Below the pieces are notes generated by a model, which worked only from the letters and a program-made list of their open reading frames with translations, searched no databases and was not told where the DNA came from. DNA of 64,000 nucleotides from Sulfuricurvum sp. (GTDB lineage: Bacteria; Campylobacterota; Campylobacteria; Campylobacterales; Sulfurimonadaceae): the NCBI GenBank assembly GCA_030696285.1, contig JAUYSQ010000068.1:2231-66230 (forward strand), given 5' to 3'. A program made the translations under genes and the position numbers. Numbering within the stretch: the first letter of the stretch is position 1; each line of letters opens with the position of its first letter. Positions 20,901-30,712 of this stretch are shown piece after piece.

Positions 20901-23003
20901 CTATATGAGACTTTCGTACTGTACCATTACCCTATTTCGACCGTTATTTTTAGCTTTATAGAGCTGTATATCCGCCTCTTTGTAAAGTTCTTCGCATGTC
21001 ATTTCAGAAACCGAATCATAAAGGGCTATTCCCATAGATATCGTCACAAAAGGAGAAATATCGTTGTTTATATGAGGGATTTCCATCTTTTCTATTTCTA
21101 CACGGATACGGTTGCCTAAATCGATATATTCTTCTTCCCTCATACCGCTCACCAATATTGCGAATTCTTCTCCTCCGAGTCTGAAAGCATATTCACCGCT
21201 TCGTGATGTATACTCTTTTAAAATTCCGGCTACATCCGTTAACACTTTGTCTCCGGCTTGATGCCCATACGTGTCATTGTACAATTTAAAATTATCGACA
21301 TCAATCATCATCAGGGCAATGGATGTATCATGCCGTTTCACCCGATTCATCTCTTCTTGAATTTTTTTGACGTAATAACGACGATTGTATAATCCGGTCA
21401 TAGAATCGGTAATTGCCAACTCTTCGATAAGTTTTTTGTCGGATATATCATGTCGTACTGCCGTATAGCCGATTATCTCTCCATCCTCGATATCCGGTGA
21501 AATCGTTGTATCAACCCAATAGTAACCGCCATTTGCATTGGAGTTTTTGATTTCACCATGCCATATTTTTCCGGAAGTAATTGTCTTCCAAATATCTTCA
21601 AATAGCTCCCTCGGCATGTCCGGATGGCGTATGATTCGGTGGTTTTTTCCAATAAGCTCCTCTTTTGAATATCCACTGATATCACAAAATGCTTCGGAAG
21701 CATAAATAATATTCCCATATTTATCCGTTCGAGAAGTGATAACATACTGATCAACCGTATCGATATACTTTTGAAGATTTATTGATTTTATGCGAATACG
21801 CTCTTCCAAATTCTCATTGAGTACTTCAATCTCTTTTTTCTGTTCCGCTAGGGTGAGATTTTGTTGATTTAACTGTGTCATTTTTTGATTGATATCCATC
21901 GACATTTTTTGAAATGCCCGAATCAATTGTTGCCATTCTAAATCGTACTGATTATCTTCTATATGAATATCATAGTTCCCTTGCGAAACATCCGATGCGT
22001 ACTGCGTCAATATCTCGATCGGTTTTGAGAAAGAGCGAAACAATACAATCATCATACTGATAACAACAGCACTGCCGGCTAAAAACAGCAGTAAAATCAA
22101 TACAAATTGTCTGTACCATGTCTGCAATAACTCGCCCTCATCAATCTTCACCGCAACATTCAATCCAAAATCATCTTGGTAACCCCATGCCACACCCGTA
22201 TTCGTTCCAGACCGATCGAGCATGTAACATTGGCCCCCTTTTCCTTTTACTGAAACAATAGGTAGAGAATCTATTTGATCGAAAGCATGGATATTATTAT
22301 TACGCATTGGAGTAGCAGTCAATATTCTTCCGTGATAACTAAACGTTGCAATAATTTCTCCCGTTTTCCCTAATTCTGAGTAGTCATTAATCACATTTTG
22401 TATATTTTTATTATCAATCTGCACCGCCACGACCCCTATTATTTTTTCATTATCAACAATCGGTACGGCAATAAAGGCCGCAAAATCATTACTTGGAGCA
22501 TAAAAATCATAATTAGAGATCTTCGCAGGGCGGTTTTTAAGTGCGCTATTAAAAACACGGGTAAGTTCAGTGTGACTGAACTTACCGCTTAGAAGATTGG
22601 TATGCAAATCAGACTCATGTTTGACGGTATAGACAATATCCCCATCCAATGCAATAATGAACAGATCATAAAATCCATTTTTATTGGCAAATGCAGCTAG
22701 ATTGCTGCGTAGACTTTGAGGGGAACGATCCCAAAATTGTTTCTCGAATATTGGGTGATGATGAGAAGCAAAAAAAACAAGCTGTTTAAAGTTATTTAAA
22801 GAAATATAGCTCTGATTCGCATACCTGTCAATAGCATCAAGCTTGTGGAGTAATGTCTTATTGAGACGAGATAAAGCATTCGTGCGAACCGTATCACGTA
22901 CTTCCCATGCTATTAAAAAAAGTGTAATCAAGGTTACCGATCCAATAGCTGTAAGCCCAATCAAGATTCGCTTAAAAACTGTCATTTTAGTCAATACAAT
23001 CAA
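20901..23003 (-). CDS. Cache-HAMP-PAS-GGDEF diguanylate cyclase
   Basis: Two TM helices around a Cache-like region, HAMP, PAS (FCDISGYSKEELIGKNH), DVDNFKLYNDTYGH, RLGGEEF. Confidence 0.92.
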   Translation of the reverse strand: MIVLTKMTVFKRILIGLTAIGSVTLITLFLIAWEVRDTVRTNALSRLNKTLLHKLDAIDRYANQSYISLNNFKQLVFFASHHHPIFEKQFWDRSPQSLRSNLAAFANKNGFYDLFIIALDGDIVYTVKHESDLHTNLLSGKFSHTELTRVFNSALKNRPAKISNYDFYAPSNDFAAFIAVPIVDNEKIIGVVAVQIDNKNIQNVINDYSELGKTGEIIATFSYHGRILTATPMRNNNIHAFDQIDSLPIVSVKGKGGQCYMLDRSGTNTGVAWGYQDDFGLNVAVKIDEGELLQTWYRQFVLILLLFLAGSAVVISMMIVLFRSFSKPIEILTQYASDVSQGNYDIHIEDNQYDLEWQQLIRAFQKMSMDINQKMTQLNQQNLTLAEQKKEIEVLNENLEERIRIKSINLQKYIDTVDQYVITSRTDKYGNIIYASEAFCDISGYSKEELIGKNHRIIRHPDMPRELFEDIWKTITSGKIWHGEIKNSNANGGYYWVDTTISPDIEDGEIIGYTAVRHDISDKKLIEELAITDSMTGLYNRRYYVKKIQEEMNRVKRHDTSIALMMIDVDNFKLYNDTYGHQAGDKVLTDVAGILKEYTSRSGEYAFRLGGEEFAILVSGMREEEYIDLGNRIRVEIEKMEIPHINNDISPFVTISMGIALYDSVSEMTCEELYKEADIQLYKAKNNGRNRVMVQYESLI

Positions 23004-23529: not shown

Positions 23530-23555
23530 AAAAAAATCCCCGCGAAAGCAGGGAT
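23530..23555 (-). terminator. Rho-independent terminator of nifHDK
   Basis: Minus strand ATCCCTGCTTTCGCGGGGAT followed by T7, 46 nt after the nifK stop. Confidence 0.75.
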
Positions 23556-23601: not shown

Positions 23602-25146
23602 TTAACGAATAAGGTCGAAGAAATAGTCGGTCGTTGCGATACCTTTGGTATCTTCATCCAACTGGTCAAGAACTTTGTTCGTGATCCACGTCAAAAGATT
23701 CAACGCACCGTCGTATCCGCTGATAGAGTAACGGTGAAGGTGATGACGGTCGAAAATCGGGAATCCGATGTAGATCAACGGAGTTCCTGTATCACGCATC
23801 AACTCTTTACCGTAGCTGTTACCGATCATGAAATCGACAGGCTCAGTAAACAAGAGTGAACGCATAGCCCATAAGTCTTTTCCAGCCCATACATTCAAAC
23901 TGTCTTTTGCAGGAGAGGTATCAAGCATTGCTCTCATCTCTGCTTCCCAGCCGTTTGGTGCATTATGGCAAAGGACGTGAGTAGGCTCAGCACCCATCTC
24001 TAACAAGAATGATACTGCTCCGATTAGGAAGTCAGGATCGCCCCAGATAGCGAATTTTTTACCGTGCATATACGGATAGCTGTCTTGCATCGCATCAACC
24101 AAACGGCCGCGCTCGATTTTGAGTTTTTGTGGAACTTCTGTCCCTGTCAACTCTGCAAGTTTCATAACGAACTCATCTGTCCCTTTGAGACCGACTGGGT
24201 TAGAGAATCCACCTGCGTGTTTCCAACGTTTTTCGACCATTTTCATGGTTTTAACGGTAGCGTATTTTTGCAATGAGATCGTTGCACTTGAGTTGATACA
24301 ATCTTTTGCATCATCGATTTTTGTTCCGCCTTGGAACATTTCGTATTGACCCGCTGGCATATCCCATTGATCAGAGTGGTCACCCAACATGATATAGTCT
24401 GTGCCGAACGCTTCTACGATAGTTTTTACCGAACGAAGACTTCCAATATACGTTTCAAAACCAGGGATGATGTTGATACGTTGTTTCGTTTCGCCTTTGT
24501 TTCCTTCCGTAAGCTGTGACATGATACCGTGCATCATATTGTCATATCCAGTGATATGGCTACCTACGAATGAAGGTGTATGAGCGTATGGAATCGGATA
24601 ATCAGCTGCCAAATATTCTCCGCCGTCTTCTTCTTTTGCCGCGATGATAAATGCCATCAAGTCGTCCCCGATAACTTCCGCCATACAGGTAGTAGAAACG
24701 GCGATCATTTTAGGTTTATACACTGCTGCACAGTTTTTAAGACCCTCTTTCATATTTACCAAACCACCAAATACCGCAGCATCTTCGGTCATAGAATCCG
24801 ATACACAAGGAGTCGGCTCTTTGAAGTGACGGGTAAAATACGAACGGAAATACGCAACACAACCGTGTGAACCGTGAACGTAAGGCATTGTACCCTCAAA
24901 TCCGAGTGCAACCATAACAGCCCCAAGAGGCTGACATGCTTTTGCAGGATTAACGGTGATTGCTTCACGAGCGAGGTTTTTCTCACGGTAATCCCATGAT
25001 TTTGTCCACTCTGCGATCTCATCTACTTTTGCAGGGTTAACCGCAAGCATAGAAGATTCGAATTGCTTTTTGTTTTTGAGCACCTCTTGGTACTCAGGGC
25101 GTTTAAACAGGTCTTTCCCGTTTACAATTTTTTCTACTTCTTGCAT
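23602..25146 (-). CDS. nifK: Nitrogenase MoFe protein beta chain
   Basis: NPAKACQPLGA, HGSHGCVAYFR, TTCMAEVIGDD, GFPIFDRHHLHR. Confidence 0.98.
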   Translation of the reverse strand: MQEVEKIVNGKDLFKRPEYQEVLKNKKQFESSMLAVNPAKVDEIAEWTKSWDYREKNLAREAITVNPAKACQPLGAVMVALGFEGTMPYVHGSHGCVAYFRSYFTRHFKEPTPCVSDSMTEDAAVFGGLVNMKEGLKNCAAVYKPKMIAVSTTCMAEVIGDDLMAFIIAAKEEDGGEYLAADYPIPYAHTPSFVGSHITGYDNMMHGIMSQLTEGNKGETKQRINIIPGFETYIGSLRSVKTIVEAFGTDYIMLGDHSDQWDMPAGQYEMFQGGTKIDDAKDCINSSATISLQKYATVKTMKMVEKRWKHAGGFSNPVGLKGTDEFVMKLAELTGTEVPQKLKIERGRLVDAMQDSYPYMHGKKFAIWGDPDFLIGAVSFLLEMGAEPTHVLCHNAPNGWEAEMRAMLDTSPAKDSLNVWAGKDLWAMRSLLFTEPVDFMIGNSYGKELMRDTGTPLIYIGFPIFDRHHLHRYSISGYDGALNLLTWITNKVLDQLDEDTKGIATTDYFFDLIR

Positions 25147-25150
25147 GACC

Positions 25151-26617
25151 TCAACCTTCCTTTTCCCATGGTGCTTTTGAGTGCGCCCATACTGGTGAAT
25201 TAATCGCTAAATCCATATCTGACGCGAAGATAGCAAATCCGTCGTACCCGTGGTACGGTCCGCTGTAATCCCATGAGTGCATCTGACGATATGGAAGACC
25301 CATTTTTTGGAATACATACTTCTCTTTGATCCCTGAAGCTACAAGGTCTGGTTGAAGTTTTTTAACAAATGCTTCAAGCTCATACTCGTTGACGTCATCG
25401 TAGATAACAGTTGAACGGAATATCTCTTCTTTAGTACGTTTGTAGTCATCATCATGAGCAAACTCATAACCTGTACCGATTACTTCCATACCCAAATCTT
25501 CATAAGCTCCGATAACGTGACGAGGACGAAGACCGCCGACGAACAACATAACCGTTTTACCTTCAAGACGAGGTTTATATTTCGCGATAACTGCATCGAT
25601 CATCGGTTGGTACTTCGCGATAACTTCTTCACATTTAGCTTGTACGCTTTCGTCAAAGAACGCCGCAATTTTACGGAGTGATTTGATGGTTTGAGAAGGC
25701 CCGAAGAAGTTGTACTCGATCCAAGGAATCCCATACTCTTTTTCCATATGACGGCTGATGTAGTTCATTGAACGGTAGCAGTGAAGCAGGTTCAATTTTA
25801 CTTTTGGTGTCAATGCCATCTCTTTAAGCGTTGCATCGCCTGACCATTGTGCTACAACACGAAGACCCATCTCTTCAAGAAGAATACGGCTTGACCATGC
25901 GTCACCGCCGATGTTATAGTCTCCGATGATCGCAACGTCATAATCGGTTGCTGTTACATCGCTGGTATCGATATTTACTTTACCGTCAAAGATAAAGTCA
26001 CGAACCGTGTCGTTTGCAATGTGGTGACCCAGTGATTGAGAAACCCCACGGAAACCTTCACAGTTAACCGGAACGATAACTTTGTCGATCTCTTTTGCTT
26101 TTACACGTGATACCGCACCGATATCATCCCCGATCAAACCGATCGGACACTCGGATTGAACCGTGATACCGTTATTGAGTGGGAAAAGTTCTTCGATTTC
26201 ATCGATACATTTACCCAATTTTTTGTCTCCGCCGAAAACGATGTTGTTCTCTTGGAAATCCGAGCTAAAGTTCATCGTTACAAACGTATCAACACCGGTT
26301 ACACCGATATAATAGTTACGGCGACCTGCACGGCTGTATTGACCGCATCCGATAGGTCCGTGACTGATGTGGATCATGTCTTTGACAGGACCCCATACAA
26401 CCCCTTTTGACCCTGCATAAGCACAACCGCGTTGGCTCATAACACCTGGAACGGTTTTTTTGTTTGAACGGACATCACCGCACGTTTTTTGATTTTCATC
26501 ATTTGGCGATCCGACACCGAGGTGTTTTTCACGGTTTTTCGCCGCTTTCTCCGGATACGCTTTTAAGATCTCTTCAATGGCCGCTTTTTGTTTAGCTTCT
26601 AGTGTTTCTGGTCCCAT
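25151..26617 (-). CDS. nifD: Nitrogenase MoFe protein alpha chain
   Basis: [40 protein letters not shown] (alpha-Cys275), [14 protein letters not shown] (alpha-His442); Mo-type signatures. Confidence 0.98.
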
Positions 26618-26631
26618 AATACACCTCTTCC

Positions 26632-26991
26632 TTACGCGACTTCGATGCGAAATTGTTCCATCGAATCTAAGTTATGACACAATTTCATTGTCTCATCATC
26701 TGCTGCATCAACACGTTTTGAGATTTCTGACATTTGGTAACGATTCATGTAAATCATGTACTTTTGAGTTTTTTCAGGATTCTCTTCTTTGAAATAATGG
26801 ACCATTGCACGGAACAAGAAAGTATCTTTATTCGTGTAGCTCAACCACTCTTTATCTCTCTCTTTAGTACCCATCAAAAGTTTGATCTCTTTAACGTCAC
26901 TGATATCAACATCGGCAATTTTTTCTGCAACTAATTCGTCTGGAATGTGATTCCCCATTGAAGCTGGGAAGTGAAAACCTAATACAAACAT
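26632..26991 (-). CDS. Unknown 119-aa protein between nifH and nifD
   Basis: Strong RBS (AAGGAG), same strand, ends 14 nt before the nifD start; no family recognised. Confidence 0.8.
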
Positions 26992-27089
26992 CTAATCTCC
27001 TTTTTCTGTTGTTTTCTTTTCATTATTAACAAGATGTTATTGGTCATTTTCATGACGGCCATTGAAGATTCCTCAAAAGAGGGTTCCTC

Positions 27090-27164
27090 GTCATTCCGTG
27101 CTACGACACGGAATCCAGTGCGCTTAAATACAATAAATGGATCCCGTATCAAGTACGGGATGAC
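27090..27164. repeat. REP-like doublet, family C, directly after the nifH stop
   Basis: gtcattccgtgctacgacacggaatcca...tggatcccgtatcaagtacgggatgac. Confidence 0.9.
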
Positions 27165-27170
27165 AACGAT

Positions 27171-28094
<924 letters not shown>

Positions 28095-28360: not shown

Positions 28361-29923
28361 TTGCACTTCATTGAGTATATCTATTTTTTCTACGGCCTTG
28401 CATTTTTTCTCTTCGGCTTCAGTATCCTCCACTATCCAATGGAAAACTCTATTTTCAAATTTGCCCGTGAATTAAAATACCTGGGACTCTTTGGGATTCT
28501 CCACGGAATATCCGAATGGCTGGTCCTGTTCAAGTTGCTGGAAACGGGAGAGGCAAAGGAGTTGCTTAACATAGCCGATTTTAGTCTAATGAGCCTCTCC
28601 TATATCGTACTCCTCTATTTTGCTTTGCGCGTTATTTGGGATCGGTATCTTGCGATGAAACTCATCAGCCTTATTATTATAGGATCGTTGATAGTGATGA
28701 TTACCTTTAATCTTTTCTCATTTAACAATGCAACCATTCTAACTCGCTACTTCCTCGGCGCTCCTGGAATTTTCTTAACCGCTTATATATTTGCCCATCC
28801 ATTTTACGTCGTTCAAGGATTAGTTTATGACTCCGTAAAACGATGTACTTTTACCCTATCCATCATTTTTTTCATTTACGGCATCCTCGCAGGGCTCATT
28901 GTCCCCACCGGAGCTTTTTTCCCGGCATCCGTTCTCAATGCCGATACCTTTCAATCTCTGACCGGACTGCCGGTTCAGCTCTTTCGAGCTTTATGTGCAA
29001 TCGTAGCGAGCTATGCAATTAGTAAAATCCTTCAAGTGTTCAAGCATCAAACCGATTTCCATCTTTTTAAACTTTCCAAGGCTCTGGAAGAGAGCGGAGA
29101 TACCGTGGTGATCACCGATATAGAAGGGAAAATCGAGTATGTCAACCGCGCATTTGAGGAAGAATCAGGATTTTTGGCGGAGGAAGCACTCAATAAAAAA
29201 ACCAATATTCTCCGCTCCGGAGAACATAGAAATTCCTTTTATGAGAAGCTGTGGCAAACAATCCTAGGAGGAAAAACCTATCGCGGAGTAGTTACCAATA
29301 AGCGAAAAGATGCAACTCTCTATCACGAGTTCAAAACCATCGTTCCCCTAAAAAATAAACGAGGAGAGATCACCAATTTTATCTCAACCGGTAAAGACAT
29401 TACCTCGCGAGTCCTCTTTGAACACGAGCTGGAAAAAGCTGCAGCGACTGATCCTCTGACCGGTGCGGCGAACCGCTTGCAGTGTGACCGGTGGCTCAAA
29501 TCAGCAACCGACCAGGCCCGAGTATTTAATACGCCGATTACACTGATACTCTTTGATATCGATGACTTCAAAAAAGTCAACGATACCTTCGGACATAACG
29601 CAGGGGATAATGTCCTGATACAGATTTCCGAAATCGTCCGTACCCTGATGCGAAGCAGCGATATGTTTGCCCGGTGGGGTGGTGAAGAGTTTTTAATTTT
29701 GCAAACTGACACCCCCTTTGAGGGGACAATGGCCCTCGCGGAGCGACTCAGAAAAGAGATCGAACAATCAACCTTTAAAGATGTCGGTCAAATCACCATT
29801 AGCATCGGTGTAGCACAGTACGATGCAGTAGGAAGTATTGAGGCGTTTGTCAAAAAGGCGGATGATGCCATGTATGCAGCAAAAAAACAAGGAAAAAATA
29901 GGATTGTGGTTGACAAAAGATAA
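28361..29923 (+). CDS. Membrane sensor-PAS-GGDEF diguanylate cyclase
   Basis: About six N-terminal TM helices, PAS (EYVNRAFEEESGF), DIDDFKKVNDTFGH, RWGGEEF. Confidence 0.9.
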   Translation: MHFIEYIYFFYGLAFFLFGFSILHYPMENSIFKFARELKYLGLFGILHGISEWLVLFKLLETGEAKELLNIADFSLMSLSYIVLLYFALRVIWDRYLAMKLISLIIIGSLIVMITFNLFSFNNATILTRYFLGAPGIFLTAYIFAHPFYVVQGLVYDSVKRCTFTLSIIFFIYGILAGLIVPTGAFFPASVLNADTFQSLTGLPVQLFRALCAIVASYAISKILQVFKHQTDFHLFKLSKALEESGDTVVITDIEGKIEYVNRAFEEESGFLAEEALNKKTNILRSGEHRNSFYEKLWQTILGGKTYRGVVTNKRKDATLYHEFKTIVPLKNKRGEITNFISTGKDITSRVLFEHELEKAAATDPLTGAANRLQCDRWLKSATDQARVFNTPITLILFDIDDFKKVNDTFGHNAGDNVLIQISEIVRTLMRSSDMFARWGGEEFLILQTDTPFEGTMALAERLRKEIEQSTFKDVGQITISIGVAQYDAVGSIEAFVKKADDAMYAAKKQGKNRIVVDKR

Positions 29924-30154: not shown

Positions 30155-30712
30155 ATGACCAACAAAGAAAAATCAATCCATAATCTCCATCAAGCCAGAA
30201 CATCACATATCCGCTGGGTCAATGCAATTAAACTACTGATATCGGGTATCGATGTATCCTCCGATACAATTACTCTCTCTCCTACTGATTCACCCTTTGG
30301 AAAATGGTTTTATGGTGAAGCAATGATTTTTTCACTAGGAACCTCTCGAATGGCTCTCGAAGATATTGAAACACTGTTACTCTCATTGCATGATAAATAC
30401 ACCAAAATTTACCCTATCTATTATGGACAGAAAAAGAAAACACGTTTAGGAGGATTTTTAGGAGGTAAGAGTAAAGCAAGCGAGCATGAAATCGAACTCT
30501 CTCTACGCTATTATGAAGAGATCATTCTACTCTCCGATCAACTTAAACATAAGCTCCGTATTTTAGAAGCGCAATTTATGGGTTTCACAGAAGAAAAATT
30601 TGACGAATACTGCCGTTTTACTGAAAAAGAGACCATTGTACCGATCGAACTGAAGATACCCGAACCTTCCATAGATGAGGGAGCCTATCATTATGGAGCG
30701 CGGGGGAGATAA
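30155..30712 (+). CDS. CZB (chemoreceptor zinc-binding)-like domain protein
   Basis: HIRWV...SPFGKWFYGE...LHDKY pattern; some Zn ligands are missing. Confidence 0.65.
   Translation: MTNKEKSIHNLHQARTSHIRWVNAIKLLISGIDVSSDTITLSPTDSPFGKWFYGEAMIFSLGTSRMALEDIETLLLSLHDKYTKIYPIYYGQKKKTRLGGFLGGKSKASEHEIELSLRYYEEIILLSDQLKHKLRILEAQFMGFTEEKFDEYCRFTEKETIVPIELKIPEPSIDEGAYHYGARGR

Follow-up and report, generated by a model that had tools for sequence, protein, structure and literature searches.

The nitrogenase operon of Sulfuricurvum sp. contains a small gene, designated X here, between nifH and nifD. X follows nifH as the second of the four genes in the nifH-X-nifD-nifK operon and is found nowhere but with the Mo-nitrogenase of the Campylobacterota lineage. 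We put the probability that its product is a nitrogenase-dedicated accessory protein at roughly 0.85 to 0.9. As to the function that we infer for it, action through the Fe protein NifH, and through an insertion in that protein, is a tentative reading that falls a little short of even odds. Small accessory proteins that are encoded with nitrogenase and act on it are of a known kind; as far as we found, there is no earlier description of the X family, of its fold and position, or of the pairing with the NifH insertion.

X and the operon that contains it

X is a 119-codon open reading frame on the minus strand of the window (the whole 64,000-nucleotide stretch of DNA that was analyzed), running from an ATG at 26991 to a TAA at 26632 (26632..26991). 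It is entered as a 119-aa conserved protein of unknown family on the strength of the ORF list, its homologues, synteny, dN/dS, and its start and Shine-Dalgarno signals. An AGGAG ribosome-binding site (27001..26997) is located 5 nt ahead of the ATG. The gap between nifH and X is 179 nt in the window, and 14 nt separate the stop codon of X from the ATG of nifD, whose own GAGG site lies inside that spacer. The initial annotation had described a 119-aa ORF on the same strand, with a strong ribosome-binding site and ending 14 nt before nifD; all of these particulars, the coordinates included, were borne out.

The other members of the operon also lie on the minus strand. The first gene, nifH (27171..28085), was recognized from the ORF list, its similarity to PDB entries and a TIGR01287 match at this position in G000. 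Its 304-aa product, the Fe protein, shares approximately 75-80% identity with PDB entries for A. vinelandii-type NifH. The MoFe protein alpha chain (488 aa) is encoded by nifD (25151..26617) and shares approximately 78% identity with Av-type NifD in the PDB, with 2-residue indels only. The beta chain (514 aa), encoded by nifK (23602..25146), has a PDB match with small indels only, including a 7-residue deletion. Compared with Av1, NifD and NifK show indels of just 2-7 residues. Seven residues that Azotobacter-type NifK has after ...MRDT, close to the C-terminal region, are missing from this NifK. The likely end of the operon is marked by a terminator-like hairpin with a T-run, 3' of nifK (23536..23555, minus strand).

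Genes for PAS/GGDEF diguanylate cyclases directly flank the operon on both sides (20901-23003 and 28361-29923). One of the two also encodes Cache and HAMP domains; the other runs divergently from nifH. The gene at 30155-30712 encodes a CZB-domain protein. The flanking PAS/GGDEF and CZB genes hint at a link between c-di-GMP signaling and nitrogen fixation. Since PAS-GGDEF genes lie on both sides and the terminator-like hairpin follows nifK, nifH-X-nifD-nifK is a self-contained four-gene unit. One Sulfuricurvum MAG (L012 and L013) contains two copies of nifH-X-nifD-nifK on different contigs, each 94-97% identical to the proteins of the window; these are either a true duplication or a mixture of strains.

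Just 3' of the nifH stop codon is a palindromic, REP/MITE-like dispersed repeat of approximately 80 nt (27085..27166, assigned to neither strand). The genome has at least 40 copies of it, and within the operon transcript it folds to a long hairpin (z = -4.3). The repeat is missing from those close relatives in which the nifH-X spacer is 102 nt. Membership in the hypF-flanking repeats or the "family B" repeats was rejected on comparison, the family being a different one. Further into the spacer is a short GC-rich hairpin (27071..27082, minus strand), which was identified by spacer comparison, folding and alignment A4; its pairing is kept over the 21 loci of that alignment, and its sequence varies between genera. 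A nearly invariant A-rich leader of approximately 26 nt, TAATGAAAAGAAAAYAAYAGAMAAAG (27000..27025, minus strand), sits just 5' of the Shine-Dalgarno site of X. The leader is conserved across Campylobacterales genera far beyond the level of synonymous sites and is unique within the window, with 0 chance occurrences expected; an Rfam search with it returned zero matches. It is not present in Lebetimonas or Wolinella, in which the nifH-X and X-nifD spacers are both short. The leader could be an internal -10-like element (CATAAT), could enhance translation, or could be where the mRNA is processed or stabilized. Over the loci, the median spacers are 14.5 nt for X-nifD and 107 nt for nifH-X; the X-nifD gap is 14 nt in all Sulfuricurvum loci and 12-40 nt in many Campylobacterales loci.

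X is a real, strongly constrained gene. A word-indexed search recovered 59 close homologues, and a profile search recovered approximately 400 clusters (90% identity). When 1.84 billion cluster representatives were scanned exhaustively with HMMER, 17 matches were obtained, 2 of them spurious; the matches to 433-aa and 1911-aa proteins were rejected as artefacts of Ig and cadherin repeats. The named members of the family all belong to the Campylobacterota (Sulfuricurvum, Sulfurimonas, Sulfurovum, Sulfurospirillum, Wolinella and Lebetimonas), and the few homologues with other MAG labels probably are mis-binned. X is conserved from the Nautiliales to the Campylobacterales at 38-60% identity. Against close relatives its median dN/dS is 0.077, and NifH, NifD and NifK of the same loci have values of 0.038-0.047; the ATG start and AGGAG-type Shine-Dalgarno site were seen in every locus with readable flanks (78/78). 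The JGI names carried by homologues P0038-P0053 and P0076, "phosphopentomutase" and "eIF-2beta/eIF-5," are supported by no domain search.

Members of the family are 115-126 aa in length, mildly acidic (pI 4.7-6.1) and hydrophilic. The AlphaFold2 model of X has an α/β architecture (pLDDT 90; pTM 0.82), and the product is predicted to be a soluble α/β protein of roughly 14 kDa. Eleven positions, M1, F2, G5, F8, P9, G13, V21, A62, N83, Y85 and Q86, are invariant over 51 diverse members, and two motifs characterize the family: an N-terminal MFxxGxxFPxxxGN and T-N-(K/R)-Y-Q (alignments A1 and A2 and the 51-sequence set). The proteins contain 0-2 cysteines, and the single common cysteine is replaced by alanine in some members. 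A signal peptide or membrane role was considered and rejected: in the model, the conserved hydrophobic N terminus forms strands within the fold, and X is an acidic, hydrophilic protein.

Co-occurrence of X with nitrogenase and with a NifH insertion

A homology and synteny search in the Campylobacterota, the check proposed in the initial annotation, found homologues with the order nifH-X-nifD-nifK in 84 of the 84 fetched loci, wherever the contig allows. Lebetimonas, Wolinella and Sulfurimonas marisnigri have this same order. On one contig, the four genes form an isolated block amid housekeeping genes. X was never found away from nifH/nifD, even where the operon is apart from the other nif genes (one contig and this window).

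The phyletic survey covered 401 high-quality species-representative Campylobacterota genomes. In this set, nifD and nifH each occur in 51 genomes and X occurs in 50, always between nifH and nifD, so that X is found in 50/51 nifD-bearing genomes and in 0 genomes without nifD. The only nifD-positive genome without X, G008, encodes a divergent nitrogenase (NifD, 544 aa, 39% identical; NifH, 60% identical). Its locus (L090, G008:C14, 6240-9463) provides an in-phylum contrast, as the slot between nifH and nifD is occupied by two PII genes, nifI1 and nifI2. In G296, a genome of 1.6 Mb, nifH, nifD and nifK are frameshifted and X is without its own start codon (L089, G296:C1, 3800-7400), and the block is pseudogenized. 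A separate, weaker nifH-like match is found elsewhere on the same contig. Because X is missing only with the divergent G008 nitrogenase and has decayed together with the G296 operon, it follows the enzyme lineage and not merely the host phylum. The earlier suggestion that X is lineage specific and tied to nitrogenase thus gains strong support from the strict synteny, the co-occurrence in the 401 genomes and the joint decay in one of them. The further proposal of the initial annotation, a protective or regulatory subunit made in near-stoichiometric amounts with NifDK, is a candidate role.

Inspection of NifH revealed an insertion at residues 86-94 (KGLFDQKTP; codons 27804..27830, minus strand), which appears as a gap against solved NifH and VnfH. 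In the numbering of the A. vinelandii Fe protein, it falls between the positions that correspond to about Gly79 and Tyr80. All X-linked NifH proteins (51/51) carry an insertion here, of 9-12 residues, with an invariant Phe and a flanking Gly, and the NifH of G008, which has no X, is without it. The survey of this insertion comprised the Campylobacterota and PDB structures. The five printed PDB alignments (A. vinelandii, G. diazotrophicus and a reconstructed form) all have a 9-residue gap at this point, and the other full-span solved matches, including VnfH, have 50-52 residues of their own across 61 query residues. No lineage-specific insertion relative to the Azotobacter type was found in NifD or NifK. 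The co-occurrence of the insertion with X is clade structured and may reflect one or a few evolutionary events. The presence of X in essentially all nitrogen-fixing Campylobacterota, together with the matching loop in NifH, suggests that X probably is an undescribed partner of a canonical-type nitrogenase.

In order to compare evolutionary rates, the topology of a concatenated tree was fixed and branch lengths were estimated on it protein by protein, and partial correlations were calculated (with bootstrap 95% confidence intervals where calculated) for 122 branches in dataset 1 and for 69 branches, from 36 thinned species-level taxa, in dataset 2. X covaries reproducibly with NifH (partial r, 0.49 [0.34-0.63] in dataset 1 and 0.47 [0.30-0.63] in dataset 2) and not with NifD (-0.05 and 0.23) or NifK (0.30 and 0.0). 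The positive control, NifD against NifK, gave 0.61 and 0.66. AU tests revealed that the nifH, X and nifDK gene trees reject one another's topologies (loci L005-L084 and L093-L138), a sign of recombination or transfer breakpoints within the operon in the Campylobacterota. The nifH and X trees are nearer to each other than to that of nifDK in dataset 1, and the conflicts are symmetric in dataset 2. As the nifH and X trees are the closer pair in dataset 1, a shared recombination history could mimic or inflate the X-NifH covariation.

Comparison with known nitrogenase-associated proteins

Pfam and NCBIfam scans with X and 15 family members returned scattered sub-threshold matches only, and a profile search of the PDB with X returned zero matches. 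These results uphold the initial view that X resembles no Nif, Vnf or Anf protein, in that there were zero Pfam, NCBIfam or PDB sequence matches. A Foldseek search of PDB and BFVD with the pLDDT-90 model found nothing significant; the best match, the N-terminal domain of P. aeruginosa DapD (TM, 0.46-0.48; E, approximately 0.03), was judged uninformative. Neither an enzyme-like fold match nor a cofactor motif was found for X.

The closest parallel in position is the NifI1/NifI2 pair. Like X, these proteins are small (approximately 11-14 kDa for NifI) and occupy the slot between nifH and nifD, as they do in G008; they are cotranscribed with the structural genes, as X is predicted to be. X lies in this position, which by itself does not establish membership in the NifI family. 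Unlike NifI1/NifI2, X is a single gene and not a pair; a PII domain, a T-loop and the ligand-binding residues are all lacking from it, and no 2-oxoglutarate/ATP site is evident. The binding of NifI1/NifI2 to NifDK blocks NifH and is reversible by 2-oxoglutarate/ATP. The PII profile PF00543 gave zero matches to X and 15 family members even at an E value of ≤10, whereas the true NifI genes of G008 score 64-79 bits with it. The absence of PII motifs from X had been noted from the sequence at the outset and agrees with an hhalign comparison against a PII/NifI alignment (probability, 0.08%). NifI1 and NifI2 act by stoichiometric binding and dock on a lineage-specific insertion in the enzyme (PMC12439982). 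In Methanosarcina, the T-loop of NifI2 binds the lineage-specific alpha-loop insertion of NifD, which is a structural precedent (PMC12439982). In the case of X, the matching insertion is in NifH and not in NifD.

VnfG and AnfG resemble X in size (approximately 113-130 aa), in being encoded inside a structural operon, in being limited to certain nitrogenase lineages, and in evolving faster than the D and K subunits. They differ in that they are encoded between the D and K genes of the V and Fe-only enzymes, whereas X is encoded between nifH and nifD and occurs with a Mo-type NifDK. VnfG and AnfG are helical bundles. X is predicted to be an α/β protein and not a helical bundle, and a comparison with PF03139 (VnfG/AnfG) gave zero matches.

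NifY, like X, is encoded in the structural operon (in Klebsiella), and it binds apo-NifDK. The FeMo-co-binding domain of NifX/NifY/NafY (PF02579) gave zero matches to X; related clusters have genes for PF02579 proteins at other places. NifM, which is devoted to the maturation of NifH, measures approximately 270-290 aa and has a C-terminal parvulin/rotamase domain; X, at 119 aa, has no rotamase match. NifY/NafY and NifM are unlike X in both position and fold. Neither NifY/NafY nor NifM is in the nif gene set given for this lineage (PMC11773926), and their absence from that set implies a functional gap.

CowN and Shethna protein II (FeSII) are small proteins that bind nitrogenase reversibly and protect it from CO and O2, respectively (PMC8047169; PMC13474568). 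In contrast to X, they are encoded outside nifHDK and have a patchy, niche-linked distribution. CowN (PF20543) gave zero matches to X, and a separate CowN gene is present in a related cluster (L085). FeSII requires a 2Fe-2S cluster bound by four conserved cysteines, while X has 0-2 nonconserved cysteines and no ferredoxin family match; an FeSII-like or metal-cluster role was rejected because the cysteines are not conserved. By the tests used, X is not NifI, VnfG/AnfG, NifX/Y/NafY, CowN, FeSII, NifM, NifT, NifW or NifZ.

Literature searches found no paper that mentions the gene. Clusters from Sulfurospirillum and Arcobacter are written nifVBHDKT..., with X omitted (PMC11773926), and the paper on N2-fixing Sulfurimonas and Sulfurovum isolates makes no mention of X (PMC11474244). 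A 2026 Chemical Reviews list of nitrogenase-binding regulators comprises DRAT/DRAG, NifI1I2, FeSII, CowN and MarS and has nothing like X (PMC13474568).

Candidate partner and role of X

In the reading that we prefer, X would bind a nitrogenase component directly and near stoichiometrically, and its preferred partner would be the Fe protein, NifH. X may dock at or near the 9- to 12-residue, probably surface-exposed insertion of X-linked NifH, and this contact would tune, stabilize or reversibly sequester the Fe protein. The outcome would be control or protection of nitrogenase that is neither of the PII type nor by ADP-ribosylation. This partnership is favored because the insertion is present in all X-linked NifH proteins and because the branch lengths of X covary most with those of NifH. 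The Methanosarcina NifI2/NifD pair offers an analogy for a lineage-specific insertion that may serve as a docking site. The source genome has no NifI genes, and its two PII genes are on other contigs; a search of it for DraT, run without a positive control, detected none. With no NifI and no DraT found, a vacancy for post-translational control is plausible. A more speculative extension, which we consider doubtful, is that X and the NifH insertion form a third means of post-translational nitrogenase control or protection, beside ADP-ribosylation by DraT/DraG and binding by NifI-type PII proteins. X would then be a Campylobacterota-specific, stoichiometric Fe-protein-binding subunit that reversibly gates or shields electron delivery, in an enzyme with a NifD close to that of the Azotobacter type.

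The anatomy of the operon in the Campylobacterales argues against NifH as the partner, since it ties X to nifD (12-40 nt) and sets it approximately 100 nt and a hairpin away from nifH. X instead may be directed at the MoFe protein, as a delta/gamma-like subunit, as a chaperone of apo-NifDK (like NifY/NafY, NifW or VnfG/AnfG), or as a NifI-like inhibitor on the docking face for NifH. We regard this as rather unlikely, at odds appreciably lower than those for NifH. It would account for the tight spacing between X and nifD (14 nt here; median, 14.5 nt) and for the hairpin and conserved leader that part nifH from an X-nifD-nifK unit. It also fits the fact that X shares the slot of nifI1-nifI2, whose products bind NifDK (PMC12439982; PMC13474568), and that NifY/NafY are not reported for the gene set of this lineage (PMC11773926). 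The rate data lend it a weak and inconsistent covariation with NifK (0.30) or NifD (0.23); however, these partial correlations were not reproduced between datasets, whereas that with NifH was. Moreover, NifD and NifK are without a lineage-specific insertion and share approximately 78% identity with the Azotobacter type, and X has no similarity to PII, NifX/NafY, VnfG/AnfG or CowN. Taken together, the NifH insertion and the rate covariation make NifH no less likely a partner of X than NifDK.

It is improbable that X serves nitrogen fixation without binding nitrogenase, as a small enzyme, a ligand-binding protein (for a metal, homocitrate or a redox-related ligand) or a regulator of nif transcripts or translation that is cotranscribed for convenience. 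The invariant polar residues N83, Y85 and Q86 and the N-terminal MFxxGxxFP could form a ligand site for such a protein, but X never occurs apart from nifH/nifD, even when the operon is separate from the other nif genes, and it has no cofactor motif, no conserved cysteine (its single one is not retained) and no enzyme-like fold match. There is a negligible probability that X is nonfunctional, having arisen as an ORF by chance or been left behind by an inserted element. Such a view could appeal only to the lack of an annotation and of a family, and it is refuted by conservation: a dN/dS of 0.08, the retained start codon and Shine-Dalgarno site, 38-60% identity between the Nautiliales and the Campylobacterales, and a confident fold prediction.

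A phylum with a near-Azotobacter Mo-nitrogenase keeps an extra constrained gene in its structural operon, along with a matching insertion in its Fe protein. Wolinella succinogenes, which is genetically tractable, carries X. Cultured 15N2-fixing Sulfurimonas and Sulfurovum isolates with full nif clusters also exist (PMC11474244). Given these organisms, the role of X is directly testable. Surveys of nif gene content write such clusters as nifHDK and so pass over X (PMC11773926). If X binds NifH or NifDK, it would be a new entry on the short list of direct modulators of nitrogenase. In some sediments, these H2- and sulfur-oxidizing diazotrophs dominate dark N2 fixation (PMC11474244); binding could also explain how they operate or protect their nitrogenase, and it would bear on the transfer of minimal nif gene sets.
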